The notes: a model not told the origin generated them from the letters alone. A DNA stretch of 64,000 nucleotides from an uncultured Gammaproteobacteria bacterium (GCA_964640635.1 CAZXFD010000001.1:17273-81272); one strand, 5' to 3'; shown: positions 1-52,700, numbered from the stretch's first letter. Program-made: numbers and translations.

Positions 1-3000
1 CTTTAAATAATGCATTTAGAACAGGCACAATAACTATAGAGTCTAGGGTTGTATCTACAACTTTGAATTTGAATTTGTTTGCTAGTTCAACTCTTCAAGT
101 AAGGCTAGGATGCTCAGTTTATAATTCAGATACAGATATCACAAGTAGGCAAACAAAATGTATTGATGAGTCGGGAACAACTCATCCTGGATTGACGTGT
201 TGTTGGAACTCTTCTTTAAATATGTGTATTAATGATGGAAGTCCTGTCTGCTCTCAGCCATATTTGAAATTAAAATCCTGTCAAAGAGATAGGGATGGCG
301 TAGTTATTTCACTTGGTTCTCCGTCTCCAATTACAAACATTACAAATGCCCCAACAGATGCTATTATTCACGCCCAGTTTAGCGGTAGAGGAGATGATTT
401 CTCTATGAATAAAAACACTTATGCAGGTGGAGTAGAGGTTTATTATTGCGGAAAAATATCTACTAGTAATTGTACTTTGGCTAATATTGGAACTACAGTT
501 TCAAATGATAGTGGAAATGATTTTGTCAATTATGGGCATACCAGTAATTTCGTTCCAAATGCTTGGTATAAAATTAAATTAAACGACTCTATTAAAGATA
601 ATAATGGAAATAGTCTTCAACCAGCACAATGGTATTTTAAAACAGCTTCAAGTACATGTCATGTTACGCAAGTAAATGTTGTTCCAAATCCTGTACAATT
701 ACCAGTATTAAGTAGTAAAAGAATAACAGCGCTTTGTTCTGACGACAGTTGTAATATTTGTGATTCGTCAGATTATCAATATTCTTGGGGGTCTAGAACT
801 CCATCTATAGCAAATGTATTAAATAGTAATGCAAATATTTCAACAACAACTGGTGTCTCTGTGGGTATGACTACAGTTAAAGTTGAGGTAAGTAAGGGTA
901 ATATACAAACTACTGGAAATGAAACAAATAGTGTATCAGTTAATAAAGATAGTTTTAGAATTTCAAATAGTGTAAATGTTATAGTTCAAGCAAATTGTAG
1001 TAGATTTAAAGACCTGGAAACATGTACAAATGGAGGTTGTTGTTTTAGCAATAATAGGTGTATATCAAATTTATCCACATGCAACTTTGGAAATTTTACA
1101 ATGAAATCATATTATCCAAGAATTGAGACTTGTCTTAATCCAATGATAAGGGCAGAGTTTGATGCAGTTGTAAATGGTGTTTCATTAAATATAGATAATG
1201 TAATTTTGGAAGATTTGAATAAAGAAACAAAGTGTAAAGATGACCCTCAGTCTATATGCTATGAAAAAGTACCAATTCAATTTTATTCTTACTCAAAATC
1301 AACAAGCACAAGTATAATAAATATTCAGATTATTCAAGCACTTCAACGAGAAAATAAATATAGAGTTAGATTGTTAAAATCCATAAGATCTATAGATGGA
1401 AAAAATTTGACTTGCGATGGTCCAGAATGTTCTTGGGAATTTAAAACAATTAATAGTCCATGTGAATTATCTTATGTAAATATAATAGATCCAGCAAATC
1501 ATTTTTATGAATATACTCAACCTAATGTGGAGAAAAATTTTATTGCTGAAGCAATAGATTCATTTGGTAATCCTATGGTCAGGGTAGATGGGTTTTATTC
1601 ATGGGATTGGCAATGGAGTTCACAAGATAATACTCTTGTAAATATTGTTGGATTAAATACAAATTTTTCAAGCACATTTAAATCTAATAATAAAAATGGA
1701 AACACAACTGTTACTATAAAAGCAAAAAAGAAAACCCCAGCAATTGGTTATACCGGAGAAGATATAAAAGATGAAGCAAATATTAGCTTGTTTATGTGTA
1801 ATAGTCCATGGATTTTTGAAGATTATGGATTTAGACTTAGGTATTGTATGGATGGTGGTCTCCCAGAATTGAATGATCGAAAAGATGCTGTTATTACAAT
1901 TACAAATGCACGAACCTCGGGTAACGGATTAATAAGAGAGTATATATTTAAATATAAAGAAGCAAAGCCAGTTGTATATTCTAACTTAGATTCTAAATCT
2001 AAAAAAGGAGTTTTATCTATTGCAACTGATAATAGATTAGGAGTAAAAATGTTTACTCAGGTTTTTGGAAGTATCTTTAATAATTTTGTTAGCAGGGTTT
2101 TAGCACAAAATTTGTCATATCAAGATGATTTGATAGGTATAAGAGTGTATGCAAATGACGATCATTTATCTCCTCGTGATTGGTATAGAAAAACAAATGA
2201 ATTTGATTTTAAGGGAAGTCCACAGGCAAAGAAAGTAGGTTTTTATGATGGTCTTATTGATGGTAGAACAACTTATATAAATGCTGGAAAAAAATCAATT
2301 TCTGTTGACGGAGCAATTGATATTCATACAGAAATTTATTTAATTTCAAAGAATCAAGACGCCTCCCCATTTACAAATAATATTTACGGTCAATTATTGG
2401 ATGGTTGGAAATTTAATGCGCAAGAAACTCTCATTGATCAAGAAAAAATAGCTCAAGACGTAAAAAGGTGGCAAGATTTAAGAACAATGGAAAATTCTTT
2501 GGAGTCCTATGCTAATTCAAATAAATTTTGTGCAAAAAAATTAGGTACATGTAGTCATTGCGCAGAGGGAAGTCTTAATTGTGATACATCTATTATTACT
2601 ATTGGAGGGGAGTGTTTTTCTATGTCTAATGTTAGCTGTAATTCAGATAGTGATTGTATTTTAAATCCATTAAATCTTCATAAATGCTTTAGAACCTACC
2701 CAGAACTTACAAGCGGTACATATATAAGAGGATTAACTAATTCATTGTGGGGCTCTTGGGATTCAAATTTGGGAGCAGCTTTGAAAACTACTTTACCAAA
2801 AGATCCAGAAAATAAATTTGGAAATTGTCAGGTAGATTGTCCTACTTGTGACGAAACAACGTGCTTTGATGATAAGAATAAAATTTTTAATTGTCCTACA
2901 GGCTCAAAAGTATATTATTATAAAGTGGGAACATATCAATCTAGTGCAATAAAATCTTTGAATTATTCAATATATTCTTTATTTAATTATTCAGATAAAT

Positions 3001-3104
3001 CAATGTGGTCTGGTAATAATGATGCTAAATTTTCTAATAATAAAATAGAGATATCAAATGATGGCGTTTGTGATGGAGAATCTGAGACAAATATGTATCA
3101 ATAA
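1..3104 (+). CDS. Large secreted cysteine-rich surface protein with a bacterial Ig-like (Big_2-like) segment; the 5' end is cut off by the window edge
   Basis: The frame of the listed ORF 63..3104 stays open back to position 3, so the N-terminus lies upstream of the window. More than 1000 aa, Cys- and Asn-rich, with repeated C-x-C and CC motifs. The segment around VKVEVSKG resembles Big_2 Ig-like domains. There is no C-terminal membrane anchor. Confidence 0.6.
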   Translation, partial: LNNAFRTGTITIESRVVSTTLNLNLFASSTLQVRLGCSVYNSDTDITSRQTKCIDESGTTHPGLTCCWNSSLNMCINDGSPVCSQPYLKLKSCQRDRDGVVISLGSPSPITNITNAPTDAIIHAQFSGRGDDFSMNKNTYAGGVEVYYCGKISTSNCTLANIGTTVSNDSGNDFVNYGHTSNFVPNAWYKIKLNDSIKDNNGNSLQPAQWYFKTASSTCHVTQVNVVPNPVQLPVLSSKRITALCSDDSCNICDSSDYQYSWGSRTPSIANVLNSNANISTTTGVSVGMTTVKVEVSKGNIQTTGNETNSVSVNKDSFRISNSVNVIVQANCSRFKDLETCTNGGCCFSNNRCISNLSTCNFGNFTMKSYYPRIETCLNPMIRAEFDAVVNGVSLNIDNVILEDLNKETKCKDDPQSICYEKVPIQFYSYSKSTSTSIINIQIIQALQRENKYRVRLLKSIRSIDGKNLTCDGPECSWEFKTINSPCELSYVNIIDPANHFYEYTQPNVEKNFIAEAIDSFGNPMVRVDGFYSWDWQWSSQDNTLVNIVGLNTNFSSTFKSNNKNGNTTVTIKAKKKTPAIGYTGEDIKDEANISLFMCNSPWIFEDYGFRLRYCMDGGLPELNDRKDAVITITNARTSGNGLIREYIFKYKEAKPVVYSNLDSKSKKGVLSIATDNRLGVKMFTQVFGSIFNNFVSRVLAQNLSYQDDLIGIRVYANDDHLSPRDWYRKTNEFDFKGSPQAKKVGFYDGLIDGRTTYINAGKKSISVDGAIDIHTEIYLISKNQDASPFTNNIYGQLLDGWKFNAQETLIDQEKIAQDVKRWQDLRTMENSLESYANSNKFCAKKLGTCSHCAEGSLNCDTSIITIGGECFSMSNVSCNSDSDCILNPLNLHKCFRTYPELTSGTYIRGLTNSLWGSWDSNLGAALKTTLPKDPENKFGNCQVDCPTCDETTCFDDKNKIFNCPTGSKVYYYKVGTYQSSAIKSLNYSIYSLFNYSDKSMWSGNNDAKFSNNKIEISNDGVCDGESETNMYQ

Positions 3105-3199
3105 AATTTCTATTTTATCAATTGTCTAATTTGTGTTATAATAAAATCACCTAAATGGGTGATTTTATGTTTGAAGGACTAAGTTGAAGTCGAGACATA

Positions 3200-4321
3200 T
3201 TGAACAATAAAATAGTTCAAGATAATATGAATAATTTTTCTACAGATCAAGATTCTTTATTGAAAGATGAGGCACAAAAGTATAAGGCCGATGATATTTT
3301 TTTAGATACAGATTATTCCTCGTCTTCTAATGTTATAAAACCAGGTGGTATTGCACCAAAGTCCCCAATTACAAATTATCGAGAATTAGTTAGTGAAATA
3401 GATAATTCTCAAGCAGATAAAATTAGGCCAAAATATTTTTTTATAGGATTGATTGTTCTAGTTTTAATTTTTGCATCTATAGGTTTTTATATATATAGTA
3501 AGTTTTTTATAAAGAAAAATGATTCTGGTCAAATATTTATAGATAATAATTCTCAAATAGAGAATCTTTTAAGCAAAGATGCAACAAGTAGTTTGTCTTT
3601 TGAGTCTAATTCAAGTCAGATTGTTATAAATGAAGATTCGGATAGTGATGGACTTAGCGACCAAGAAGAAAATATCTTTAAAACAGATAAAGATAAGATA
3701 GATACAGATGATGATGGGCTTTCTGATAAAGATGAAGTCAAAATGTATAAAACAGATCCATTGAATAGAGATTCGGATGGAGATAATTATTTAGATGGAG
3801 AAGAAGTAAAAAATGGATATGATCCAATGGGTCTAGGGAAACTTTTGAATTTTGATTTTTTAAACTCAAATTCAGAAAATGAGTCTATTTCTTTTAGTGT
3901 TGATATGGCAAATTGGGTAAGTATTAATTCTTATATCGAGTCTTTAAAAAATACATCTTTTTCTAATCCAATATATGATTTTAAATATCCAAATAATTTA
4001 GTAGTATCTATAGATGATAAAAAAATTATTTTATCTGGTGTAGATTTTAAAGTTTATTTTGAGGTAAGAGACAATAAATTAGAGCTTGATTTAAGTGATT
4101 GGGTGATGACTCAAAATGAATTTTCTTTATCTTCTAATAATTCTACTAATATAGCTAGCTTGGAAGCAATGATAGCTACTAGCGCTGGCACAGATTTCAA
4201 AAAAATTATTTTTATAGCAGACAAATCATCTGTTTATATATTTAAGTATATTGGCGATGTTGCTTTATTGGACAATATGAATATTTTCAAGTCTATCGCA
4301 TCTTCATTTAGTATAAAATAA
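3200..4321 (+). CDS. Membrane-anchored protein with thrombospondin type-3-like Ca-binding repeats
   Basis: An N-terminal hydrophobic helix (FFIGLIVLVLIFASIGFYIY) is followed by three DxDxDGxxDxxE repeats (DSDSDGLSDQEE, DTDDDGLSDKDE, DSDGDNYLDGEE) and then YDPMGLGKLL. The listed start is TTG; an ATG at 3227 is an alternative. Confidence 0.55.
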   Translation: MNNKIVQDNMNNFSTDQDSLLKDEAQKYKADDIFLDTDYSSSSNVIKPGGIAPKSPITNYRELVSEIDNSQADKIRPKYFFIGLIVLVLIFASIGFYIYSKFFIKKNDSGQIFIDNNSQIENLLSKDATSSLSFESNSSQIVINEDSDSDGLSDQEENIFKTDKDKIDTDDDGLSDKDEVKMYKTDPLNRDSDGDNYLDGEEVKNGYDPMGLGKLLNFDFLNSNSENESISFSVDMANWVSINSYIESLKNTSFSNPIYDFKYPNNLVVSIDDKKIILSGVDFKVYFEVRDNKLELDLSDWVMTQNEFSLSSNNSTNIASLEAMIATSAGTDFKKIIFIADKSSVYIFKYIGDVALLDNMNIFKSIASSFSIK

Positions 4322-4323
4322 GT

Positions 4324-5631
4324 ATGTTTGAAGAAAAACAAAATCAAAATATAGATACAAATATGGATCAAGCTCAAAAAGTTTTTGACAGTTTAGAATC
4401 AGAGAAAGAATTAGAAATCAATGATGATAATATTCACTCTATGCCAGAGAGATTTTTAATGCCCTCTGAAATGAAGTCTGGAAAAAATAATGCAGGACTT
4501 ATTATTTTGATAGTTGTGGTTTTGTTAGTAGTCTTAGCTGTCGCAGGATTTGCTTTTTATGTTTTTTATGATAACAAAAAAACTTCTGATCAGGATATTT
4601 TAAATGTAGAACAAAACACTACAACAACTCAAGAAATCATTGATATTAATACACAAGATAATTTACAAACTCCAGAATTGAGAGATAAAAAAAGATTAGA
4701 TGATGTTTTGGAAATAAGAACAGCGCTGAGTTTGTATTTTAAAGAACAAGGAAAGTATCCAAATTCACTATTTGATTTGTCATCTTATCTAACAACTATT
4801 CCAATAAATCCATCGCCAGGCGGGGAGTCTTATAATTATCAAGTTAAAGATGCTAATAAAGACTATATAGTTACATTTGCTTTTGAGGGAAATATTGAAA
4901 ATGGAAATCTCATTTTTAATTCTGGAAAATATCAATTAGGCCCTATTTTCGGAATAGAGCCATATAAAGAAGTTCAAAACAATGAAGATCAGGACTCGAT
5001 TGATAATGATAATAATATTCCAGACGATGTTAATGCCGACAATAACCAACAAATGCCTATTATTCCCCCAAAAGGAACTGACACTGATGATGATGGACTT
5101 ACAGATGCAGAAGAGATTATTTTTCAAACAAATGTGGATTTAGTAGATACAGACTCAGATACCTACAATGATAAAGAAGAAATTCTTAATTTATATGATC
5201 CAACAAAGATAGACGGAAAATTATTAGAAAATATTTCATTGGCAAGGGTTTTTATTGAAGAAGAATTAAAGTATTCTTTTGTTTATCCAGCAAAGTGGAT
5301 GGCTCAAACAAAAGATAAAGAAACAAGGGATGTTATGATTTTTGAAGCAGAGAATAAGGATTTTATAAAAATTCAGGCAAAAGATAATCCACAAGAATTG
5401 TCTGCAAAAAATTGGTATTTAAACACCTCTCCAGAAGTTAATCCAGACGATTTGAGTAATTACAAAAACAGGAATAATCTTGTCGGAGTTAAATCAAAAG
5501 ATGGTTTAAATGTTTATATTTCAACTGGTAACAAAATTTACATAATATCTTATATTTCAATAGATACAGTGAAGTTAAATTATCAGTCCATATTTGATTT
5601 GATTGCAAACACCTTCAAAATTTCAATTTAA
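4324..5631 (+). CDS. Membrane-anchored TSP3-repeat protein, a paralog of the preceding gene, carrying a pseudopilin (GspG)-like segment
   Basis: A TM helix (GLIILIVVVLLVVLAVAGFAFYVFY) is followed by RLDDVLEIRTALSLYFKEQGKYPNS, which fits the R..L.D...I..AL..Y...G.YP pattern of GspG/pseudopilins. There is no canonical prepilin cleavage motif. TSP3 repeats DTDDDGLTDAEE and DTDSDTYNDKEE are followed by YDPTKIDGKLL. The C-terminus is similar to that of the 3200 gene. Confidence 0.55.
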   Translation: MFEEKQNQNIDTNMDQAQKVFDSLESEKELEINDDNIHSMPERFLMPSEMKSGKNNAGLIILIVVVLLVVLAVAGFAFYVFYDNKKTSDQDILNVEQNTTTTQEIIDINTQDNLQTPELRDKKRLDDVLEIRTALSLYFKEQGKYPNSLFDLSSYLTTIPINPSPGGESYNYQVKDANKDYIVTFAFEGNIENGNLIFNSGKYQLGPIFGIEPYKEVQNNEDQDSIDNDNNIPDDVNADNNQQMPIIPPKGTDTDDDGLTDAEEIIFQTNVDLVDTDSDTYNDKEEILNLYDPTKIDGKLLENISLARVFIEEELKYSFVYPAKWMAQTKDKETRDVMIFEAENKDFIKIQAKDNPQELSAKNWYLNTSPEVNPDDLSNYKNRNNLVGVKSKDGLNVYISTGNKIYIISYISIDTVKLNYQSIFDLIANTFKISI

Positions 5632-5635
5632 TTTT

Positions 5636-6055
5636 ATGTACGATATTAATATTCTAATAAAAGATTTTGAGATAGAGAAATATTTTAAGAAAAATGTTGA
5701 TAAAATACTCAAAAATGAAAAAATAAAAAAAGATCAGATTTCAATTGTTATTATAGATGATGTTTTAATGAAAAAATTAAATAGTAAGCATAGGAACAAG
5801 AAAACAACAACAGATGTGCTTAGTTTTGTAGAAAAAGATATAAAAATAACATTTCCTCAAAAAGATAATTATTTAGGAGAAATATTTATTAGTTATAATC
5901 AGGCAAAAAAACAAGCAAAAGATATAAAAAAAGAAATGTTAGATTTGTTTGTTCACGGATATTTACATTTAAAAGGTTATGTTCACGATAGCGAGGAGCA
6001 ACTCGTTGTCATGAATAGAGCTTCAAATAGGATAATAAAAAAATTGTGTTTATAA
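5636..6055 (+). CDS. ybeY: Endoribonuclease YbeY (rRNA maturation factor)
   Basis: The HGYLHLKGYVH motif matches the H-x3-H-x5-H metal site of YbeY, and the size (about 140 aa) fits. The start is taken at ATG 5636 (MYDINIL) because the listed 5603 start overlaps the upstream gene. Confidence 0.7.
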   Translation: MYDINILIKDFEIEKYFKKNVDKILKNEKIKKDQISIVIIDDVLMKKLNSKHRNKKTTTDVLSFVEKDIKITFPQKDNYLGEIFISYNQAKKQAKDIKKEMLDLFVHGYLHLKGYVHDSEEQLVVMNRASNRIIKKLCL

Positions 6056-6098: not shown

Positions 6099-7340
6099 AT
6101 GAAAAGAAATCAAATAATTACAGGATTAGACATAGGATCTAATTTAATCAAGGTTGCTGTTGCTCAAATACAGGCAGAAGATAACTCTATAAACATAATA
6201 GGGGCATCTGAATATCCATCAAGAGGAATTGTTGGGGGTAATATTGTAAGCACAGAAGATGTTGTAAATTCTATTTCTTCGGCACTAGAAAAAGTAGAAA
6301 GAGTTATAGGAGCTCCTATAGAAAGAGTTGTTATTAGTGTTTCTGGACCAAATATTAAATCTATTAATAGTCAAGGCGTCGTTGCCGTTGCTAAAGCTGA
6401 CGGGGAAATAAAATATGAAGATATAGATAGGGTTTTAGATGCTGCTCAAACAGTTGCAGTGCCAGCAAATTATGAAATATTACATGTTATACCGCGTCAC
6501 TATAAAATAGATAATCAAGATGATGTTAAAGATCCAATAGGAATGAGTGGGGTAAGACTTGAGGTAAATGCGCAGATTATTATGGCATTATCATATCAGA
6601 TAAAAACACTCACTAAGTGCATTTATAGAACAAGTGTCGATATAAAGGACATGGTTTTTGGAATACTTGCAGACGCAGAAGCTGTGTTGAGTAGAGAACA
6701 AAAAGAGCTCGGTGTAGTTTTGATAAATATAGGTTCATCAACTACTGGTGTTGCAGTTTTTGAAGCAGGAGATCCAATTCATGTTGCAGTACTACCAATA
6801 GGTTCTTCTCACATAACAAATGATTTAGCTATTGGCCTTAGAACATCAATCAAAGTAGCAGAGCAAGTAAAAATAAATGAAGCAACTTGTCTTGTTGAGC
6901 AGGTAAAAAAGAGAGATGAGGTAGATATTGGATTATTTGATCCAGAAGATGATAAAAAAGTTATGGTTGCTAGATCTGAGATATCAAAGATTACAAGAGC
7001 AAGAGTTGAAGAAATATTAGATCTTGTGGGCCGTGAACTAAAAAAGGTTGAAAGATTTGGAATGCTTCCAGCGGGAGTTGTTCTTACGGGCGGAGGATCT
7101 AAGTTGAATGGATTAGTAGATCTTGCAAAAACAGAATTAAAGCTACCTGTATTTTTAGCAAAACCACATAGAGTAAATTCAATTACGGATAAAATATATG
7201 ACTTGAGCTATAGTAATGTTTTGGGTTTAATTTTGTGGGATTCTAAAAATAATCATTCTTTTAAAGGTTTAGGAATCTCAATAAATACAAGTGGTATTAC
7301 ATCAAAAATTACTAAATTGTTTAAATCAATTATCCCATAA
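6099..7340 (+). CDS. ftsA: Cell division protein FtsA
   Basis: Actin-fold N-terminus ITGLDIGSNLIKVAVAQ, about 410 aa, immediately upstream of ftsZ. Confidence 0.85.
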   Translation: MKRNQIITGLDIGSNLIKVAVAQIQAEDNSINIIGASEYPSRGIVGGNIVSTEDVVNSISSALEKVERVIGAPIERVVISVSGPNIKSINSQGVVAVAKADGEIKYEDIDRVLDAAQTVAVPANYEILHVIPRHYKIDNQDDVKDPIGMSGVRLEVNAQIIMALSYQIKTLTKCIYRTSVDIKDMVFGILADAEAVLSREQKELGVVLINIGSSTTGVAVFEAGDPIHVAVLPIGSSHITNDLAIGLRTSIKVAEQVKINEATCLVEQVKKRDEVDIGLFDPEDDKKVMVARSEISKITRARVEEILDLVGRELKKVERFGMLPAGVVLTGGGSKLNGLVDLAKTELKLPVFLAKPHRVNSITDKIYDLSYSNVLGLILWDSKNNHSFKGLGISINTSGITSKITKLFKSIIP

Positions 7341-7387: not shown

Positions 7388-8662
7388 ATGTCACGAAGCA
7401 AAGAAATAAAGCCAGAAATTGAAACTTTTGCAAAAATAAAAGTGGTTGGAGTTGGTGGTTCTGGCGGATCAGCTATAAATAGAATGGTAGGAGAGGGTAT
7501 AAAAGGTGTTGAGTTCATAGCTGTAAACACTGATGCTCAGGCTCTTAGTATGTCTCAAGCAAAACATAAAATACAAATTGGAATAGAAACAACAAGAGGA
7601 CTTGGCGCTGGAATGGATCCAGAAGTTGGATTTAGATCTGCAGAAGAAAGTTCTGAAGAAATTGAAAAAGCGCTAGGTGGCGCAGACATGGTTTTTATTA
7701 CTTGTGGTCTTGGTGGTGGAACTGGTACTGGTGCAGCTCCTGTTATAGCAGATATTGCAAAAAATACTGGTGCGCTTACTGTGGGAATCATAACAAAGCC
7801 ATTTAGTTTTGAAGGCGCTCAAAGAAAATCCATATCAGAAAGAGGATATAATGAGTTAGAAAGTCGAGTTGATACTATTATTAATATTTCAAATGATAGA
7901 ATATGGAACGTGTTAGATAGAAAAATTTCTTGGCAAGAAGCTCTTCGAGCTGTAGATGGGGTGCTTCATCAAGGAATTCAGGGAATATCAGAGATAATTA
8001 CAATTCCTGGTATGATTAATGTCGACTTTGCAGATGTAAAAGCTATTATGTCAGATGCTGGATCTGCACTTATGGGCATAGGTCGTGCAAGTGGAGAGGA
8101 TAGGGCTAAAAAAGCTGCAAAAGAAGCAATAGATTCACCGCTATTAGATGTATCTATCGCGGGTGCAAAAGGAATATTATTTACCGTAACTGGTGCATCA
8201 GACTTAGCAATGTTCGAAGTAAATGAAATAGCAGAGATTATTACAGCATCAGCAGATGGAAATGCAAAAATTATATTTGGAACAGTAATTGATGATTCTA
8301 TGAAGGGCGAGATAAAGGTAATGGTTATAGCTACTGGATTTGAAAGTTTTGACATAAAAGATTCAAAAACAGCAGGTTTCCAATATATGCCAAATAGATA
8401 TGTTAGTTCTATGAATAATATTGAGAATAAAAAATCATCTCAAGATTTCTTAGACAAAGACACTGAATCAGATGACAACAAGCAAGAAAAAGAAGAGGAT
8501 TATTTTGAAGATGAGGTAGAGGCAGAAGACATTTCTTTCAAATTTAGAAATGACAAATTTCAAAATAATAATTATAACGATAATAATGATGCCAATATTG
8601 TCCCAGAGACAAATAGTGAGTTAGATATCCCAGCATTTTTAAGAAGAAAAATCAAATCATAA
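7388..8662 (+). CDS. ftsZ: Cell division GTPase FtsZ
   Basis: Tubulin signature [13 protein letters not shown], an N-terminal [15 protein letters not shown] stretch, an acidic/Asn-rich linker and a C-terminal DIPAFLRRK peptide. RBS aagaaaggaa lies upstream. Confidence 0.95.
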
Positions 8663-8669
8663 AATATAT

Positions 8670-9116
8670 ATGAAGTGTCCAATTTGTCCAGCTACAACAA
8701 AGGTTTTAGATTCTCGTATTGCAACAGATGATGTAACAGTAAGAAGAAGACGAGAGTGTCTTGAGTGTGGTTTTCGTTTTTCAACAATTGAAGAAATAGA
8801 AATTTTGGACTTAAAAATTATAAAAAGAGATGGAAAAAGAGAGCTTTATAATAAAGAAAAATTAAAATCAGGTATTAAAAAGGCACTTGAAAAAAGAGAG
8901 CATAATGAAGAAGAAATAGCTCAGCTTTTGAGAGACATAGAAATGGATTTACAGAAAATGAAAAAGGAGGAAATAGAGTCATCTGTCATAGGTGAATTTG
9001 TTATGGATCATCTAAAAAAATTTGATAAAGTCGCATATATTAGATATGCCTCTGTTTATAGATCTTTTGAAGATGTAAATATGTTTAAAAAAGAATTAAA
9101 GAATTTAGAAAAATAA
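8670..9116 (+). CDS. nrdR: Transcriptional repressor NrdR
   Basis: Zn-ribbon MKCPICPATTKVLDSR...CLECGFRFST followed by an ATP-cone; 148 aa. Confidence 0.9.
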   Translation: MKCPICPATTKVLDSRIATDDVTVRRRRECLECGFRFSTIEEIEILDLKIIKRDGKRELYNKEKLKSGIKKALEKREHNEEEIAQLLRDIEMDLQKMKKEEIESSVIGEFVMDHLKKFDKVAYIRYASVYRSFEDVNMFKKELKNLEK

Positions 9117-14156: not shown

Positions 14157-15038
14157 ATGAAAAAATATAAAAAAACATTATTTGCACTGATTCCTATTCT
14201 TATTTTGTTTGTTGTAAATATTGTAAAAGCACAAATACAGCTTCAAGTTGCCCTACCCACCGCAAATGATGGAACAATAAGTAGTGTATCAGGACTTAGC
14301 GATTATATAAGAATAGTATATAACTATGGAATTTATGCAGGTAGTGTTATCGCTGTTATAATGATTTCTATAAATGCCTTTAAGTGGGTATCAGCAGGTG
14401 GAAACAAAAGCACGATAGGAAAGGCAAAGGACGGAATGATAACTTCAATGGTGGGGCTTTTTGTTCTTTTTGGATCTTATCTTATTCTTAGCACAATAAA
14501 TGGAGAGCTCGTGGCCCTGAAAGCATTAGATGTTAGGCCTTTAGACACGAAGGCATATTTGGAAAAAGTAGAAAGATCTTCTGGTTTAGATACAGCGTAT
14601 TATGATGACATGTATGTTGCAGATCAAGGACGCGAGAGCGAAGGCAATCCAAGACCAGTAGCTGTATTGAGATGTGCTAATGATTCGGACACTAGTCATT
14701 ATTGCATTGACCTTCCATTAGGTCAGCCAGATATTCAATATGAGTTTAGCACTACAATAGGTGCATGCGAATATACTACTATGCAATGTGTTTCAAACGC
14801 TCGTAATTGCAATAAGACCTGCCTAAACTATAGTGATTGCGGAAATTTTTCTAATGGTTATTGTGATGGAGCGGGTCCACAAGTTTGTTGTAGTCGGCAA
14901 AAAAGACCTAATGAGACAACCTGTAGTCATAATATACAGTGTTTAAGTGGATGTTGTTGTAATTTTAGCTGGCCTACAAGAGATGTGTGTAGATCAACAG
15001 CAAATTGTAATTTACTTAATAAGAGCTGTATTCAGTAA
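14157..15038 (+). CDS. Pilin-like membrane protein (signal peptide plus two hydrophobic helices, a VirB2/TrbC-like topology) with a cysteine-rich C-terminal domain
   Basis: A signal-like N-terminus and the conserved core DYIRIVYNYGIYAGSVIAVIMISINAFKWVSAGGNKSTIGKAKDGMITSMVGLFVLFGSYLILSTINGELVALKAL, followed by about 150 aa with more than 20 Cys (GYCDGAGPQVCCS...). The assignment to a pilin fold rests on topology only. Confidence 0.6.
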   Translation: MKKYKKTLFALIPILILFVVNIVKAQIQLQVALPTANDGTISSVSGLSDYIRIVYNYGIYAGSVIAVIMISINAFKWVSAGGNKSTIGKAKDGMITSMVGLFVLFGSYLILSTINGELVALKALDVRPLDTKAYLEKVERSSGLDTAYYDDMYVADQGRESEGNPRPVAVLRCANDSDTSHYCIDLPLGQPDIQYEFSTTIGACEYTTMQCVSNARNCNKTCLNYSDCGNFSNGYCDGAGPQVCCSRQKRPNETTCSHNIQCLSGCCCNFSWPTRDVCRSTANCNLLNKSCIQ

Positions 15039-15061: not shown

Positions 15062-16057
15062 ATGCAAAACATTTTTTTGAAGAGATTAAAAGATGCTAAG
15101 ATAACTCATATTTTGTTTTTTGTTGTAATTTTTATTTTTTTTATTGTTAAAATTACAAAAGCAATACCACTCGAACATGCAATACCAGGGCCAGATGGAG
15201 ACATAAGTAGTGTAGAGGGTTTAAGTGATTACATAAGAATTGTATATAGTTATGGAATATATGCAGGTAGCGTCTTGGCGGTTGTCATGATATCTGTAAA
15301 TGCTTTTAAGTGGGTATCAGCAGGTGGGAATAAAGGCTCTATAGATAAGGCAAAAAATGGAATGATAATGTCTATAGTGGGACTTTTTCTTGTTTTTGGA
15401 TCTTATCTTATACTCAGTACAATAAATGGAGAGCTCGTGGCCTTGAAAGCATTGAATGTGTATCCTATATCACCTCAAGAATTTGTGGGAGTAGATTTTT
15501 CGACAATGAAACTTGCTGAAACTTTACAACAAGATATAGCAAATGATATTCGTTGTAATTTAATCGCAGATAATAATTGTCCACCAGGCAAGGTTTGTAG
15601 AAAGTTAAAGGATAAATATATTTGCACAGAACCACTAGGAGATAATATGGCCTGTGAAATACAAAGTGAATGTAGGCCCCCACTTACATGTAATGCGCAA
15701 ACATTGAAATGTGAAATCCCTCCTGTTTTACAGTGTGCAGGAATTTTAGATAATTATAGATGCTTTACAAATCTTTACCCTAGTCCCAGTTTTGGATATT
15801 GTGACAACAGACAATGTGTTCCTTGTCGTGGAGAAGGACAGATATGTACAACTATAACTAGAATAGTGCCTTTGGTAACTTTTGTAGCATGGCCCATGCA
15901 ATGTGTAAATAACAATAGTGGGATTTGTGGATTGCCATTTTATGAGGCAATTGAACCATGGGATCAATTACCGGATTCTTATAAAGCACCTAATACGGGT
16001 TCTTGTACTGGTGGTAGTTGGTTTCAGCATCAAGTTGGAAATTATTATTGTGAATAG
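15062..16057 (+). CDS. Tandem paralog of the 14157 gene with a different cysteine-rich C-terminal domain
   Basis: The core is nearly identical to its neighbour at the DNA level (for example ggatcttatcttatactcagtacaataaatggagagctcgtggcc). The C-terminal ~190 aa has EGF- or knottin-like Cys spacing. The first 13 aa (MQNIFLKRLKDAK) match the N-terminus of the downstream M16 peptidase. Confidence 0.6.
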   Translation: MQNIFLKRLKDAKITHILFFVVIFIFFIVKITKAIPLEHAIPGPDGDISSVEGLSDYIRIVYSYGIYAGSVLAVVMISVNAFKWVSAGGNKGSIDKAKNGMIMSIVGLFLVFGSYLILSTINGELVALKALNVYPISPQEFVGVDFSTMKLAETLQQDIANDIRCNLIADNNCPPGKVCRKLKDKYICTEPLGDNMACEIQSECRPPLTCNAQTLKCEIPPVLQCAGILDNYRCFTNLYPSPSFGYCDNRQCVPCRGEGQICTTITRIVPLVTFVAWPMQCVNNNSGICGLPFYEAIEPWDQLPDSYKAPNTGSCTGGSWFQHQVGNYYCE

Positions 16058-48272: not shown

Positions 48273-49385
48273 ATGGAAACACCAAATTTACCAACACTCA
48301 AATCATCGCTGGATACATTTCTTTCTAAGAAGGAAAAGATTTCGGGCTATCTGTTAACGGGAGGTATAATCATAGCTGCCGTAATCGGATTAAATGCCAT
48401 ACTGCCCTGGTTATCCAATATGCTTGGGAATCTGATAGCAGTTGTTGGAAAGTTAATTACCTTGGGTATAATGGGGATCGCTGCTGCTGGTTTGGTAGTC
48501 ATTGCTCTTTCAGAGCGTACGCATACTTTAGTCAAAATCGCTTTTGCCAGATTGGCTAGAGGTGCCACAATGACTTTTATCAAGTATTCACCGTGGACAA
48601 TTCCTGAAATTTACATAGAGTATATTGATAAGAAGGCGCGAGATATTTATCAAAAAATAACAAACGTACTAGCTATTAATAACTCTATCAAAAAAGCTCA
48701 TGGCAAAAATGTTGAAATTATTGAAAGTAATGATGAAACTTGCAGGTCTTTACAGGAACGATATTTCAAGAATGGTGTTTGGGTAAGTGAAGAACATCAT
48801 AATCTTTTCAGAGAAAAGGCCAGTGATACAGATTTTCGGACTAGATCCAATAAAAATCTTCAAAAACAAATTGACCGGTTGGAGTTTTATTTGACCGTGC
48901 TCAAAAAGTTTGAGCAAGCTTTTAAGTATCGCAGAAATGTTTTGAGAAACTTTTGCGATGCTATCGTGCTTGAATACAATGCAACCAAAGAATCCGCAGA
49001 AGTTACCCGAGAATTAGCTACTCTTTTTGGAACAGATGACATGAAAAAGGTTTTTGACATGTCAGTACAATTTATGCAAGATCGTATGAGCAATTTTGTC
49101 GCAGAGACAGATACCTTTTTCCAGACGAATATGTCTGCTCTCACCGAAATGGATCTTAGCCAAGACGTCGCCGAAGACGCCTATATGAATAGGTTGAAAC
49201 AAATGGGTGATAAGGCTGATCTTTTAATTGAGCAAGCAGATCAGGATCAAAAACTCATTACTTCTGCCGGTTCCGGAAAAGATATGATGAAAATCATCAT
49301 GGAACAAAAGACAGATGGCGTTTATGTTCCCGCTGGTCGTAATACTGGAACATTCGGTAGTAAGAAAAACTACCTTGACATTTAA
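48273..49385 (+). CDS. Uncharacterised membrane protein with two TM helices and a long coiled-coil cytoplasmic domain (GC-rich island)
   Basis: RBS ggagg; Gly-rich helices (GGIIIAAVIGLNAILPWL and LGIMGIAAAGLVVIAL) followed by about 270 aa of helical sequence. Confidence 0.5.
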   Translation: METPNLPTLKSSLDTFLSKKEKISGYLLTGGIIIAAVIGLNAILPWLSNMLGNLIAVVGKLITLGIMGIAAAGLVVIALSERTHTLVKIAFARLARGATMTFIKYSPWTIPEIYIEYIDKKARDIYQKITNVLAINNSIKKAHGKNVEIIESNDETCRSLQERYFKNGVWVSEEHHNLFREKASDTDFRTRSNKNLQKQIDRLEFYLTVLKKFEQAFKYRRNVLRNFCDAIVLEYNATKESAEVTRELATLFGTDDMKKVFDMSVQFMQDRMSNFVAETDTFFQTNMSALTEMDLSQDVAEDAYMNRLKQMGDKADLLIEQADQDQKLITSAGSGKDMMKIIMEQKTDGVYVPAGRNTGTFGSKKNYLDI

Positions 49386-49419
49386 ACTCATAACAAATAA
49401 AGAAAAAATAGGAGAAATC

Positions 49420-50964
49420 ATGTTCAAGAATTTAACTACCTTTGCGAAGATATTCATTATTTTCGTTGTTGTGGCTATAGTGGTTACTATTAGCTATTTC
49501 AGTTTTGACAAACTTGCCCCCGAAGGTAATTCTGTCAATACCAGCAAGCTCTCGGAAGATGTGAGACAAGCCGTCAAAGACGGCACTCCGCTTGTCACAA
49601 TATGCTTTAATACCTGGCTCGGATTCTCCGGAGGAATAGCATACAACGGTGGCACAGAGGCTTCCAAAAGTTCCAGATATTTCACTGAACAGGGTATTTT
49701 AGTTCAGTTTAAACTCATGGATGACTTTGAGGCTTCTCGCAACGCCTTTCGTTCCGGTGACATCGATATGATGTGGACTACCGTGGACTCTTACCCTACA
49801 GAGACCGATGGTCTCAAAGAGTTTGAGCCGCAGTTTTTATTTCAGATTGACTGGTCTCGCGGTGGAGATGCCGTTGTCGTAAGACGTGGAATTAACACTG
49901 TTAATGAGTTGCGTGGTAAGAAAATTGCTTGCGCACTCGGAGCGCCTAGTCATAGTTTGATAATTAACACCCTAGAAGCCGCAGGAATTCCATATAATGC
50001 AGTTGAAATAATTGCAATGCCAACAGCTATTCAAGCCGCCGATGCTTTTAAAGCTGGTCAAGTTGATGCTGCTGTGGTTTGGGCTCCGGATGATGACGTG
50101 TGCGTCGAAGCTGTTCCTGGATCCAAAAAACTTTTCACTACCAAAGAAGCCACGAACATTATTGCGGATGGTTTCTATGCAAAGAAAAGGTGGGCACTGG
50201 ACAACAAAGACACTGTTGTCAAGGTTGCTGCCGGTTTCATGGTCGGTAATGCAGAGATAAATACTGATCCCTCCGCAAAGCAGAGGGCAGTTGAAGTTAT
50301 GTCGGTCGCTCTTGGTCAAAAGGCAGATTTTTGCCTTAGTGGCATAAATAATGTCCGTTTGTCTACGGTCGGGGATAATATGAATTTTCTTGGTCTTGGT
50401 AGCGGATATACAGGAATCACTGCTGAAGCGCTTTACAGACGAATGGCAACTGCGTATCAGCAAGTTGATTATTTAAAAAGCGCGCCTCCAAGTTGGAATC
50501 AAGTTTATGACAAATCTATTATTCCAGCTGTTGCACAAAAAATTCCACCTACTGGAAGTCAAGCACCGGAAAGCGGAGCTGAATTTAGACGATTAAGTAA
50601 TTCTGCTGATTTGGATGTCCGAGCTTCTAAAGATATGACTGTGAATTTCAGTCCCGGTTCATCATATTTGGATGATAATGCTAAACAGCTTATAGACGTA
50701 GGCTTTGCCCCAGTAGCTCAACAATTTGCACAGATGCACATTCGTGTATCTGGGCATACGAGTACAGATGGAAGCCGCGATGTAAATGTTAGGCTTTCCA
50801 GAAGTCGTGCGCAAGCAGTCGTCGACTATCTTGTTCAGCAGTATGGATTTAGTCCGAATAGGTTTATTGTAGCCGGTTATGGACCTGATCATCCAATCGC
50901 AACAAACGATACAGAAGAAGGTCGCGCCAAAAACAGGCGGACTCAATTCGAACTCGTAGAATAA
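49420..50964 (+). CDS. ABC transporter substrate-binding protein (NMT1/SsuA/TauA-like) fused to a C-terminal OmpA/MotB-like peptidoglycan-binding domain
   Basis: The start is taken at ATG 49420 with RBS aggag; an N-terminal TM helix and an SsuA-like core (KIACALGAPSHSLIINTLEAAGIPYNAVEI...DAAVVWAP). The C-terminus reads SGHTSTDGSRDVNVRLSRSRAQAVVDYL...GYGPDHPIATNDTEEGRAKNRRTQFEL (OmpA_C). Confidence 0.7.
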   Translation: MFKNLTTFAKIFIIFVVVAIVVTISYFSFDKLAPEGNSVNTSKLSEDVRQAVKDGTPLVTICFNTWLGFSGGIAYNGGTEASKSSRYFTEQGILVQFKLMDDFEASRNAFRSGDIDMMWTTVDSYPTETDGLKEFEPQFLFQIDWSRGGDAVVVRRGINTVNELRGKKIACALGAPSHSLIINTLEAAGIPYNAVEIIAMPTAIQAADAFKAGQVDAAVVWAPDDDVCVEAVPGSKKLFTTKEATNIIADGFYAKKRWALDNKDTVVKVAAGFMVGNAEINTDPSAKQRAVEVMSVALGQKADFCLSGINNVRLSTVGDNMNFLGLGSGYTGITAEALYRRMATAYQQVDYLKSAPPSWNQVYDKSIIPAVAQKIPPTGSQAPESGAEFRRLSNSADLDVRASKDMTVNFSPGSSYLDDNAKQLIDVGFAPVAQQFAQMHIRVSGHTSTDGSRDVNVRLSRSRAQAVVDYLVQQYGFSPNRFIVAGYGPDHPIATNDTEEGRAKNRRTQFELVE

Positions 50965-51037
50965 GAAAATAATTCCGGAGTGGACAGACGAATGTCTGCC
51001 CACTCCTTTTATTTCTAACTCAAAAAAAGGAGAGTTT

Positions 51038-51835
51038 ATGTTCAGTCAGCTTTTCCAACTCCGCGGATCTTTAAGCAAAAAAGTATCAGGTTTGTGTGAA
51101 TTTATAGGTATCTTGGTAATACTCATTATTTGGACAGTAGTGTCAGAAATGGGTGTTGTTCCCAAGGGAATACTTCCCTCACCCATCAAGATTCTTCAAT
51201 CACTTCCGGAACTCCATTTTGAAGATGCGCTTGTGAGAAATTTATTTTACTCATTTAAGCTCAATTTGTTTGGTGGAATGGAAGCAGTAGCACTTGCTAT
51301 ACCACTTGGTTTTTTAATAGGTCTTGTGCCTGTTTTAAAGGCAATTTTTGGTAGATATATAGAAGCGATTCGATTTTTGCCACTTACAGCGACCATTGGT
51401 TTATTTATTGTAGCTTTTGGACTTGATACAAACATGAAAGTTCAATTTCTTGCCTTTGCGATATTTATTTATTTAGTACCGCAAGTCAAAAGAAGAGTTG
51501 AAGAAGTAGAGGATGTGTATGTTCAAACAGCTCAAACAATAGGTGCTAATGCCTGGCAAAAAATTAGAATAGTATTTGTTCCAGCGGTTTTTGCAAGGGT
51601 TTATAATGATATTGTAAATCTTATAGCTTTGTCATGGACCTATGTAATCGTAGCAGAAATGGTAAACACATCTGGCGGTGGCATAGGATCTCTTACATTT
51701 ATTTGTTTCCGACAAGGAAGAATTGACAAGGTCTATGCAATTTTGATAGTGATTATTCTCTTCGGAATATTACAGGATTTTGTCATGAAGTTGTTGGGAA
51801 AAGTTTTATTCTCTTATTACAAAGAGGGGTGCTAA
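51038..51835 (+). CDS. ABC transporter permease (NitT/TauT family)
   Basis: Six TM helices and a conserved AEMVNTSGGGIGSL loop. Confidence 0.8.
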   Translation: MFSQLFQLRGSLSKKVSGLCEFIGILVILIIWTVVSEMGVVPKGILPSPIKILQSLPELHFEDALVRNLFYSFKLNLFGGMEAVALAIPLGFLIGLVPVLKAIFGRYIEAIRFLPLTATIGLFIVAFGLDTNMKVQFLAFAIFIYLVPQVKRRVEEVEDVYVQTAQTIGANAWQKIRIVFVPAVFARVYNDIVNLIALSWTYVIVAEMVNTSGGGIGSLTFICFRQGRIDKVYAILIVIILFGILQDFVMKLLGKVLFSYYKEGC

Positions 51836-51836
51836 C

Positions 51837-52700
51837 ATGGGAGCAATTCAACAAGTAACAATGTTTCACGACCCAAGTGGTAAAATGCCGGATCACATTT
51901 CTTTTATTGATAATCCTGCTTGGCCCAATATCATTGAGTTCAAGAAGATAAGTCAGTATTATCCTGGCAGAAAAGACCCCGTGATTCTTGATTTGGATTT
52001 GATCATTGAGGATAAACCAGGTGAGGGTCAGTTTGTGGTAATACTTGGACCATCTGGGTGTGGAAAGTCAACCTTGCTTCGCTATGCATGCAAACTACAA
52101 AACCCAACATCTGGCGAAGTTTTGTTAAATGGCCGTATTATCAATCACAATGATCATATCAATATGGTTTTCCAGAATTACTCTTCCTTTTGGTGGTATA
52201 CGGTGCTTGAAAATGTCATGCTCCCGCTTCTTATTCAAGGTATCTCAAGAAAAGAAGCTAAAGAAAGAGCAATGGATATTATCAATAAGGTTGGTCTTTC
52301 CGGTCATGAAAACAAGTGGGCTATATACCCCGCTTTATCAGGAGGACAGCTGCAGCGAGTAGCCATTGCAAGGTCTCTCATCACAAATCCCAAGATTCTT
52401 CTTATGGATGAGCCATATGGAGCGCTTGATATTGTGACAAGGTTTAAAATGCAAGAGCTTATTTCCCATATCTATGACACAACAGATAATATTACCATTA
52501 TCTTTGTGACTCATGATATTGAGGAAGCAGTTTTCCTCGCAGACGACATTTATGTCATGGATGCAAATCCGGGACGTATAGTCCAAAGGTTTCATCCAAA
52601 TCTTCCCTCGGTAAGAACCTGGGAAACCAAGGATGATCTAGTATTCATTCAATCCGTTCACGAAGTTCGCAACTTCATGCGTTCTTTTGAACGCAAATAA
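51837..52700 (+). CDS. ABC transporter ATP-binding protein
   Basis: Walker A GPSGCGKST, signature LSGGQLQRVAIARSL and Walker B LLMDEPYGALD. Confidence 0.85.
   Translation: MGAIQQVTMFHDPSGKMPDHISFIDNPAWPNIIEFKKISQYYPGRKDPVILDLDLIIEDKPGEGQFVVILGPSGCGKSTLLRYACKLQNPTSGEVLLNGRIINHNDHINMVFQNYSSFWWYTVLENVMLPLLIQGISRKEAKERAMDIINKVGLSGHENKWAIYPALSGGQLQRVAIARSLITNPKILLMDEPYGALDIVTRFKMQELISHIYDTTDNITIIFVTHDIEEAVFLADDIYVMDANPGRIVQRFHPNLPSVRTWETKDDLVFIQSVHEVRNFMRSFERK

Follow-up and report, generated by a model that had tools for sequence, protein, structure and literature searches.

The stretch of DNA analysed here (64,000 nucleotides of GCA_964640635.1 CAZXFD010000001.1:17273-81272; the window, below) opens with three genes on the + strand: the 3' part of a gene for a giant surface protein (3..3104), gene B (3227..4321, 364 amino acids, its start as called in L002, a contig identical to the window's) and gene C (4324..5631, 435 amino acids). 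Four conserved downstream neighbours follow on the same strand, namely ybeY (5636-6055), ftsA (6099-7340), ftsZ (7388-8662) and nrdR (8670-9116). Here we report that the trio, carried by an ultrasmall bacterium of the CPR/Patescibacteria, recurs in the same order across metagenome-assembled genomes (MAGs) of Patescibacteria, that its members share domains, and that gene C carries a pilin-type head on a tether, with the processing signals of a pilin missing. The window has a G+C content of ~30% and carries almost every gene on the + strand. Its other open reading frames (ORFs) that were scanned encode housekeeping proteins for the most part, plus two proteins with weak matches to PF18895, and a search for extra copies of the trio's domains elsewhere in the 64 kb found none.

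The product of gene C begins with a predicted cytoplasmic region containing the motif IHSMPERF (4432-4455) and continues through a transmembrane (TM) helix (4495-4569, about residues 57-82) and a low-complexity linker into a domain of the GspG/pilin-head type (4678-4968), as delimited by profile and AlphaFold2 (AF2) model. An acidic linker, two thrombospondin type-3 (TSP3) repeats (5080-5181) and a PsbP/Mog1-like C-terminal domain (5266-5628) complete the protein, of which only 15 close homologs were present in a collection of 5.8 billion proteins. Scored alone, the TSP3 repeats of C reach 14.4 bits (cutoff 25); both are invariant across the 15 homologs, align with the repeats of B in hhalign and are modelled with a predicted local distance difference test score (pLDDT) >90.

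A first-pass annotation of the window, made from sequence alone, had remarked that the segment RLDDVLEIRTALSLYFKEQGKYPNS of C resembles GspG, and profile searches agree with it. The head-domain profile, built on residues ~112-215 of nine C-family members, returned GspG/EpsG pseudopilins as all six of its best matches in the PDB (best E 4.5e-5), with an alignment spanning the RD-K-R-x-D-I-x-I-x-AL-x-Y…YP…P-x-NP region, and PF08334 (T2SSG) was matched weakly by six of the nine aligned members. A phmmer search of the PDB with the whole of C gave no match; the domain profile was needed. Structure prediction, which had been proposed as a check on the annotation, yielded a confident pilin-like head: in the AF2 model (15-sequence alignment, mean pLDDT 72.6) the TM helix (residues 57-82) is followed by an unstructured stretch (82-111, pLDDT <50), then by a long helix (117-142) packed on a beta-sheet (171-213; pLDDT 75-92), and further on by the C-terminal domain (~300-435, pLDDT 80-95). 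The same profile matches bona fide class III pilins, one in locus L049 (12141-12641, KG/FTLIELLVV) and one in protein P0338 (AG/FTLIEVLV, with a Pfam N_methyl match). Since real Patescibacteria pilins match it, the head of C is homologous to true pilin heads.

A true GspG/pilin-type head, and the match of class III pilins to its profile, are what would be expected if the locus served a type IV pilus or an apparatus like the type II secretion system (T2SS), with C entering the filament as an unusual minor pilin or pseudopilin. C nevertheless lacks what defines a pilin. There is no prepilin-peptidase site, as the annotation had stated: C does not match Pfam N_methyl (PF07963), the expression G[FMLIVY][TS][LI][IVL]E has zero matches in any frame of the window, and the TM helix, which reads AG-LIILIVVV and lacks Glu+5, is preceded by 57 cytoplasmic residues. 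Nor does the pilin-like segment stand straight after the TM helix, where the annotation had placed it; the head begins near residue 117, past a linker of ~35 residues that is disordered in the model and of low complexity in all homologs. In pilins, the hydrophobic alpha1N continues directly into the alpha1C of the head as one helix, and because the linker separates the TM helix of C from its head helix, C cannot pack like a pilin.

Comparison with orthologs points the same way. Of 45 C-like sequences, among them that of the window's contig and one from a duplicate locus, only ~9 have the head, and the headless majority retains all other parts of C. Among the ORFs scanned in the 64-kb window there is no PilB, PilC or PilD, and no VirB4 or VirD4. 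With no class III signal, a disordered linker and a head that is absent from most orthologs, C is best described as bearing a tethered ectodomain and not as a pilus subunit. Because the defining pilin features fail, membership of a pilus is largely refuted and we regard it as very improbable. The interpretation given in the first-pass annotation is supported in part, its "pilus-associated complex" is not. The annotation had also passed over the VirB2-like anchor, the PsbP-like fold of all three proteins, the conserved cytoplasmic motifs and the operon-like linkage to ybeY-ftsA-ftsZ, all described below.

Beyond the C family, many proteins without class III signals bear this head as an ectodomain, either tethered or in tandem copies. 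Searched against 1.84 billion representative proteins, the head profile gave 6070 clusters at E ≤ 1e-3 and 268 at E ≤ 1e-10, and the best matches are mostly of plain design, with a TM anchor, a linker and the head (P0267, P0272, P0297, P0303, P0316, P0325, P0340). Tandem heads are found in P0199 (six near-identical copies in 755 residues), in P0203 (two) and in P0202 (three, behind a polytopic membrane domain). To judge by these architectures, the orphan pilin head is a widespread extracellular module of which C is one instance, and the tandem arrays suggest a general extracellular repeat module derived from pilins. Such wide reuse of the head, independent of pilus assembly, cautions against annotating tethered-head proteins as pilins. 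C shares with GspG/EpsG and the type IV pilin heads (PF08334) the globular alpha/beta head but differs from them in lacking a class III signal or N-methylation motif, in its ordinary TM helix, disordered tether and multidomain build, and in having no adjoining assembly genes.

Gene B encodes a cytoplasmic N-terminal region with the motif ADDIFLDTD (3287-3313), a TM helix (3434-3496), three TSP3 repeats (3635-3805), the sequence YDPMGLGKLL (3815-3847) and a PsbP-like C-terminal domain (3968-4318). Its repeats match Pfam TSP3_bac (PF18884) at 39.3 bits (cutoff 25, E 5.5e-10) over three DxDxDGxxDxxE stretches. The annotation had counted two or three such repeats in each protein, which is correct (three in B, two in C), and the YDP..GKLL motif and the endings ...IFKSIASSF and ...IFDLIANTF are present as it described them. 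It had also called the TM helices N-terminal, which they are not: in both proteins a stretch of 57-70 residues, predicted to be cytoplasmic and carrying a conserved motif, comes first. The further claim that B and C are paralogs depends on the method of comparison. Pairwise BLASTP gives no significant match (E 0.17), whereas hhalign of the whole-protein profiles returns a probability of 99% (E 9e-18) and, with the TSP3 repeats excluded, the C-terminal domains by themselves align at a probability of 95% (E 3.7e-8, 115 columns), in agreement with the relatedness proposed for these domains. B and C are thus distant paralogs, visible to profiles only.

Lys/Arg clusters stand directly ahead of the TM helix throughout the family, from which we infer an N-in/C-out topology for B and C. 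In the C family, the predicted cytoplasmic part carries [IV][HY]xMPx[KR]F at 15-60 residues ahead of the TM helix (32 of the 45 sequences by strict regular expression, with recognizable variants in the rest). The proteins in the B slot of relatives typically start MFD(D/N), bear [ED]DIFAxT[DE] in the predicted cytoplasmic tail (24 loci) and continue with one TM helix and 2-4 TSP3 repeats, for a length of 190-300 residues. Across loci L001-L047, the cytoplasmic motifs of B and C are conserved far more than the rest of the N-terminal regions. At the other end of the proteins, the C-terminal domain has the fold of an alpha-beta-alpha sandwich superimposable on PsbP, Mog1, LpqN or DcrB, the matches to TplEi, LpqN, Tsi3, Apa, MTC28 and DcrB having lower scores. 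The likeness is at fold level alone, as Pfam PsbP_2 (PF18933) is not reached (10.5 bits, cutoff 27, E 0.63).

A single open frame runs in across the left edge of the window, and its 1033 codons there (bases 3-3104) encode residues 1152-2184 of the giant protein; the full product in the same genome, P0136 (2184 residues), was supplied by L002 together with the protein collection. The part inside the window contains 4.0% Cys and 10.1% Asn, in keeping with the earlier description of a giant Cys- and Asn-rich Ig-like protein of more than 1000 residues. The Ig-like segments had been likened to Big_2, which was not found. The domains of P0136 are Big_5 (five copies, 82.7 bits, 3.7e-23) and TIG (four copies, 46.8 bits, 3e-12), both above their cutoffs, and Cys-rich segments are also present; the best Pfam stretch of the part in the window is a Big_5 domain at 324..644 (26.6 bits, cutoff 23.6). 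The N terminus of P0136, which lies outside the window, consists of a signal peptide (…FISLAQ) followed by two hydrophobic helices flanking a short basic loop. This hairpin matches the VirB2-like Pfam family T4SS_pilin (PF18895) at 23.5 bits (E 5.7e-5), below the cutoff of 26.6, and PF18895 is on record for orthologs of the giant protein at 36% identity and in loci L001, L003 and L006. The protein had been called secreted, and the signal peptide supports its export, but the VirB2-like two-helix hairpin that follows would anchor it in the membrane, so that it is probably not freely secreted.

The same hairpin is the starting point for a different reading, in which the giant protein would enter a VirB2-like pilus, or its base or tip, through its N terminus, while B and C would help to assemble or anchor it. 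Arrays of VirB2-like pilins are common across Patescibacteria, and one such array is reported to be essential in one cultured member (PMC12102498). PF18895 is present at the N terminus of orthologs of the giant protein and weakly in P0136, and other PF18895-like proteins are encoded near by (14157-15038 and 15062-16057 in the window; a 565-residue protein in locus L087). The match of P0136 falls short of the Pfam cutoff, however, a C-terminal extension of 2000 residues is hard to fit into a VirB2 helical filament, and PF18895 may be just a common membrane anchor in Patescibacteria. There is no VirB4, VirB6 or VirD4 gene in the window, and core genes of a type IV secretion system (T4SS; VirB4 or other) were found neither there nor in loci L001-L006 and L087. 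We consider a VirB2-type filament quite unlikely. Among the VirB2/TrbC-like proteins (PF18895) of Patescibacteria, the small VirB2-like pilins begin with a signal peptide and a two-helix hairpin, an arrangement also seen in the giant protein, with its sub-cutoff match to PF18895; in the giant protein, however, the hairpin is fused to ~2000 extracellular residues, and T4SS core genes do not adjoin it. The closest publication deals with the small pilins only and makes no mention of giant fusions (PMC12102498).

The two window genes with weak PF18895 matches are adjacent to each other and encode proteins of 293 and 331 residues (E 5e-4 and 8.8e-6), and the L087 protein, which combines PF18895 with Big_5, is encoded directly 5' of the giant gene. 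Surface proteins of many sizes thus seem to use the VirB2-like hairpin repeatedly as their N-terminal anchor.

Towards its C terminus the giant protein shares domains with its neighbours. Its penultimate domain (2121..2417) is PsbP/Mog1-like and homologous to the C-terminal domain of C, whose profile it matches in hhalign with a probability of 89.7% (E 1.9e-6); the alignment pairs the signature DvIGiRiYkN..HLSP.DWY … DGrTvYVNA … iYLiS of the giant protein with DFiKIQv.dNPq.LS..nWY … DG.nvYla … KIYiISY of C. No match was found between this domain and the C-terminal domain of B in hhalign, and the link passes via C only. A PsbP-like domain is common to all three proteins of the trio.

The last module of the giant protein (2430..3101) is conserved and probably pilin-head-like. 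It opens with a helix, DVKRWQDLRTMENSLESY (2457-2510), that resembles pilin alpha1C, and has a Cys-rich insert of ~80 residues ahead of YPELTSGTY. An insert-free ortholog in locus L027 (7389-8696), which reads RDVKRLADIRDIEMYLNNYYEAVGLYPKLDAGTY…LPTDPLN, bridges the two families, matching the C-terminal profile of the giant protein (5e-25) as well as the pilin profile of gene C (5e-9) and coming close to PF08334 T2SSG (E 4.8e-4, 20.6 bits, cutoff 21). The distance from the helix to YPxL is 24 residues in L027, 80-87 residues (Cys-rich) in the window's clade and 178 residues in L006, whose giant protein has a Pfam CBM_4_9 match. Searches of the PDB with a profile of the giant's last 215 residues, and by phmmer with the insert-free L027 module, gave no match. 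These observations are consistent with a pilin-type head whose alpha-beta loop hosts variable inserts, which we consider the probable nature of the module.

Directly ahead of the PsbP-like domain of the giant protein lies a conserved amphipathic/hydrophobic segment (2037-2108, LGVKMFTQVFGSIFNNFVSRVLAQ). It ends in (K/R)V(F/L)AQ, resembling the close of the protein's own signal peptide (ISLAQ), and could be an internal processing or membrane-association site.

C-like genes, defined by a TM helix, two TSP3 repeats and the PsbP-like domain, were collected by a pattern scan of species-representative genomes followed by profile searches on the loci retrieved. They occur at 43 distinct loci, all in Patescibacteria MAGs, with record titles that include Falkow-, Uhr-, Magasanik-, Kerfeld- and Buchananbacteria and "Parcubacteria". 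Where enough flank was available, the giant gene lies directly upstream of the C-like gene in 28 of 36 loci, a B-like gene (strict regular expression) stands between the two in 21 of 36, and YbeY, FtsA and FtsZ are encoded immediately downstream of the C-like gene in 34 of 38. The order giant-B-C is retained in relatives down to ~25-30% identity. Co-occurrence of the three genes, another check proposed with the annotation, is thus a recurrent property of these loci.

In many third-party annotation (TPA) MAG records, a Patescibacteria-type locus of this kind stands under the title "uncultured Gammaproteobacteria bacterium", as does the window itself. The Gammaproteobacteria titles on these TPA records are evidently mislabelled, in what looks like a systematic fault of the public records.

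The genes from B to nrdR are closely packed, with gaps of 2 nt (B-C), 4 nt (C-ybeY), 43 nt (ybeY-ftsA), 47 nt (ftsA-ftsZ) and 7 nt (ftsZ-nrdR). The gap between the giant gene and B, 122 nt, holds the region's best and sole strong promoter-like site, TTATCA-16-TGTTATAAT (3115-3142, + strand; extended -10, 10/12 matches plus TG), and no terminator-like site was found before the end of nrdR. The promoter scan overall was not above chance, and its result is consistent with one B-to-nrdR unit. Judged by spacing and signals, B, C, ybeY, ftsA, ftsZ and nrdR probably form one transcription unit.

Placement in a division gene cluster suggests a role for B and C as linkers at the division site or cell pole, in which their cytoplasmic motifs would bind FtsA/FtsZ while the ectodomains would attach to the wall or to the giant protein, so that surface architecture and division would be coordinated. 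Such a role would suit the shared strand and short gaps, the single strong promoter-like site 5' of B, the recurrence of YbeY, FtsA and FtsZ directly 3' of C, and the position of both conserved motifs in predicted cytoplasmic tails. The motifs recall, by what we take to be an analogy only, the INLLP peptide of PilN, which binds the FtsA-like PilM, and the C-terminal DIPxFLR of FtsZ. B and C have in common with the bitopic proteins of the pairs PilN-PilM, FtsN-FtsA and MapZ-FtsZ that a short motif in the cytoplasm is joined by a single TM helix to an extracellular domain, and that the gene adjoins ftsA/ftsZ. B and C, however, have no homology to PilN, FtsN or MapZ, no sequence or fold likeness to these or to FtsQ/DivIB, and no ectodomain of the POTRA, SPOR, MapZ-C or PilN ferredoxin-like type. 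In loci L016, L037 and L042 the trio is intact although ftsA is not adjacent. The linkage may, moreover, be inherited synteny: hisS-(rpsU)-yqeY lies upstream of the giant gene in L006 and L087 and ybeY-dgkA makes up the downstream flank, which presumably resembles an ancestral Firmicute-type neighbourhood (compare the gene order of B. subtilis). We judge a role as division-site or polar linkers to be unlikely, yet it is the main rival to the interpretation that we favour.

Division and attachment could also be joined, with B and C as Patescibacteria-specific couplers whose motifs would dock onto FtsA/FtsZ and whose ectodomains would hold the giant fibre, so that the divisome would position and duplicate an attachment organelle. 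This proposal, which extends the analogy, seems to us quite improbable in so specific a form; if true, it would mean that ultrasmall bacteria tie cell division directly and physically to their apparatus for epibiotic attachment. Some coupling of the trio to the divisome is possible.

We favour the interpretation of the trio as a conserved, lineage-specific attachment/envelope module of Patescibacteria with a tethered, non-assembling pilin head, and give it an even chance of being correct. The giant protein would be exported by its signal peptide, held in the membrane by the VirB2-like hairpin, and project ~2000 residues of Ig-like (Big_5/TIG) and Cys-rich segments, ending in a tip made of the PsbP-like domain and then the pilin-head-like module, with loop inserts that vary by lineage (none, Cys-rich or CBM-like). 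This predicted anatomy would suit a long surface fibre whose ligand-binding tip varies, and the variability of the distal insert suggests that a ligand or host is recognised there. B and C would be single-pass proteins, N-in/C-out, with TSP3 repeats that presumably bind Ca2+ and the PsbP-like domain outside the cell. The pilin head of C would be a domesticated ectodomain on a flexible tether, neither a PilD-cleaved prepilin nor a filament subunit. In the likeliest arrangement, B and C partner the giant protein close to the membrane, where they would dock it, organise it or pass on its state depending on Ca2+, and their motifs would connect it to a cytoplasmic partner. Shared domain vocabulary and tight, deep linkage are the grounds on which we infer that the three proteins act together, and the function of the whole module would be to attach the bacterium to a substrate or to a host cell.

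Several observations weigh against this interpretation. Interaction within the trio is deduced from linkage and shared domains only, and a pure adhesin model leaves both the cytoplasmic motifs and the probable co-transcription and near-universal placement with ftsA/ftsZ unexplained. The PsbP-like fold is functionally promiscuous and points to no specific activity; it is also missing from the B-slot proteins of most other genomes, so that the "paralogous pair", and the PsbP-like domain on B, are specific to the window's lineage. The pilin-likeness of the giant's last module depends on one bridging ortholog and a near-cutoff Pfam match: direct hhalign of the module with the pilin profile reached only 19%, and the AF2 model of the last 438 residues was poor (mean pLDDT 50), region 112-210 alone being used, with caution.

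All of the domains are of known kinds, and their combination is not described in the searchable literature, in which we found no account of a trio by ftsAZ, of this domain combination, of a tethered pilin head, of a giant PF18895 fusion or of the two cytoplasmic motifs, and nothing on TSP3/PsbP-like proteins beside ftsA in Patescibacteria. TSP3 envelope proteins (PF18884), such as the OmpA-family proteins of Ignavibacteria/Bacteroidota, Myxococcus CglD and MtsD, have the same repeats in an extracytoplasmic linker beside an envelope-interaction domain. B and C differ from these in having only 2-3 repeats, in the lack of an OmpA, beta-barrel or VWA domain, in the joining of the repeats to a PsbP-like domain and a cytoplasmic motif, and in a host that is presumed monoderm. 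The PsbP/Mog1-like envelope proteins (BT_1490, cyanobacterial PsbP, LpqN, DcrB, MTC28/Apa, Tsi3/TplEi) show no significant sequence likeness to the trio, whose domains have a signature of their own, NPxxLSxxxWY...DG...YIISY.

Much of bacterial diversity belongs to the Patescibacteria, whose cultured members live attached to other cells; to our knowledge, most of their surface-building proteins have yet to be described. The present analysis defines a three-gene module with its domain anatomy at 43 loci from MAGs labelled as several candidate phyla, and the two conserved cytoplasmic peptide motifs give handles on how ultrasmall epibionts organise attachment and division.

The control region 5' of B has some further features. 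A perfect 12-bp hairpin, AUAAAAUCACCU…GGGUGAUUUUAU (3141-3168, + strand, z -4.0), comes directly after the promoter-like site and may act as a stabilising 5' stem or else terminate the giant gene weakly; the sequence of 3115-3168 is identical in loci L087 and L088, at 60-70% protein identity. The start of B is likely the ATG at 3227, the TTG at 3200 being merely a mechanical ORF start. Ahead of that ATG, bases 3155-3226 read in the frame of B as MGDFMFEGLS-stop-SRDILNNKIVQDN, with an in-frame TGA at 3185-3187. Two relatives, with the stretch at ~9929-10000 in L087 and ~2929-3000 in L088, have an in-frame TGA at other positions (MGDFMFA-stop, MGDFMFKNAH-stop), and P0018, from one relative, and more distant orthologs read through as an ordinary N terminus, MFED…LNNKxVQ. 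An alternative genetic code was rejected as an explanation of the TGA, since this codon ends 4 of the 46 window genes, and long ORFs are intact under table 11. The leader could be an N terminus in decay, with translation restarting further down, a short upstream ORF that has been conserved, or a case of read-through.

Far from the trio, the block at 48273-52700 has a G+C content of 0.39-0.40, against ~0.30 elsewhere in the window. It encodes an unknown protein of 370 residues, whose ORF overlaps the second ORF of the block by ~70 nt, an ABC permease and ATPase, and, at 49315-50964, a fusion of a periplasmic-binding-protein-like domain with a peptidoglycan-binding OmpA C-terminal domain. Horizontal transfer may have brought in the block.

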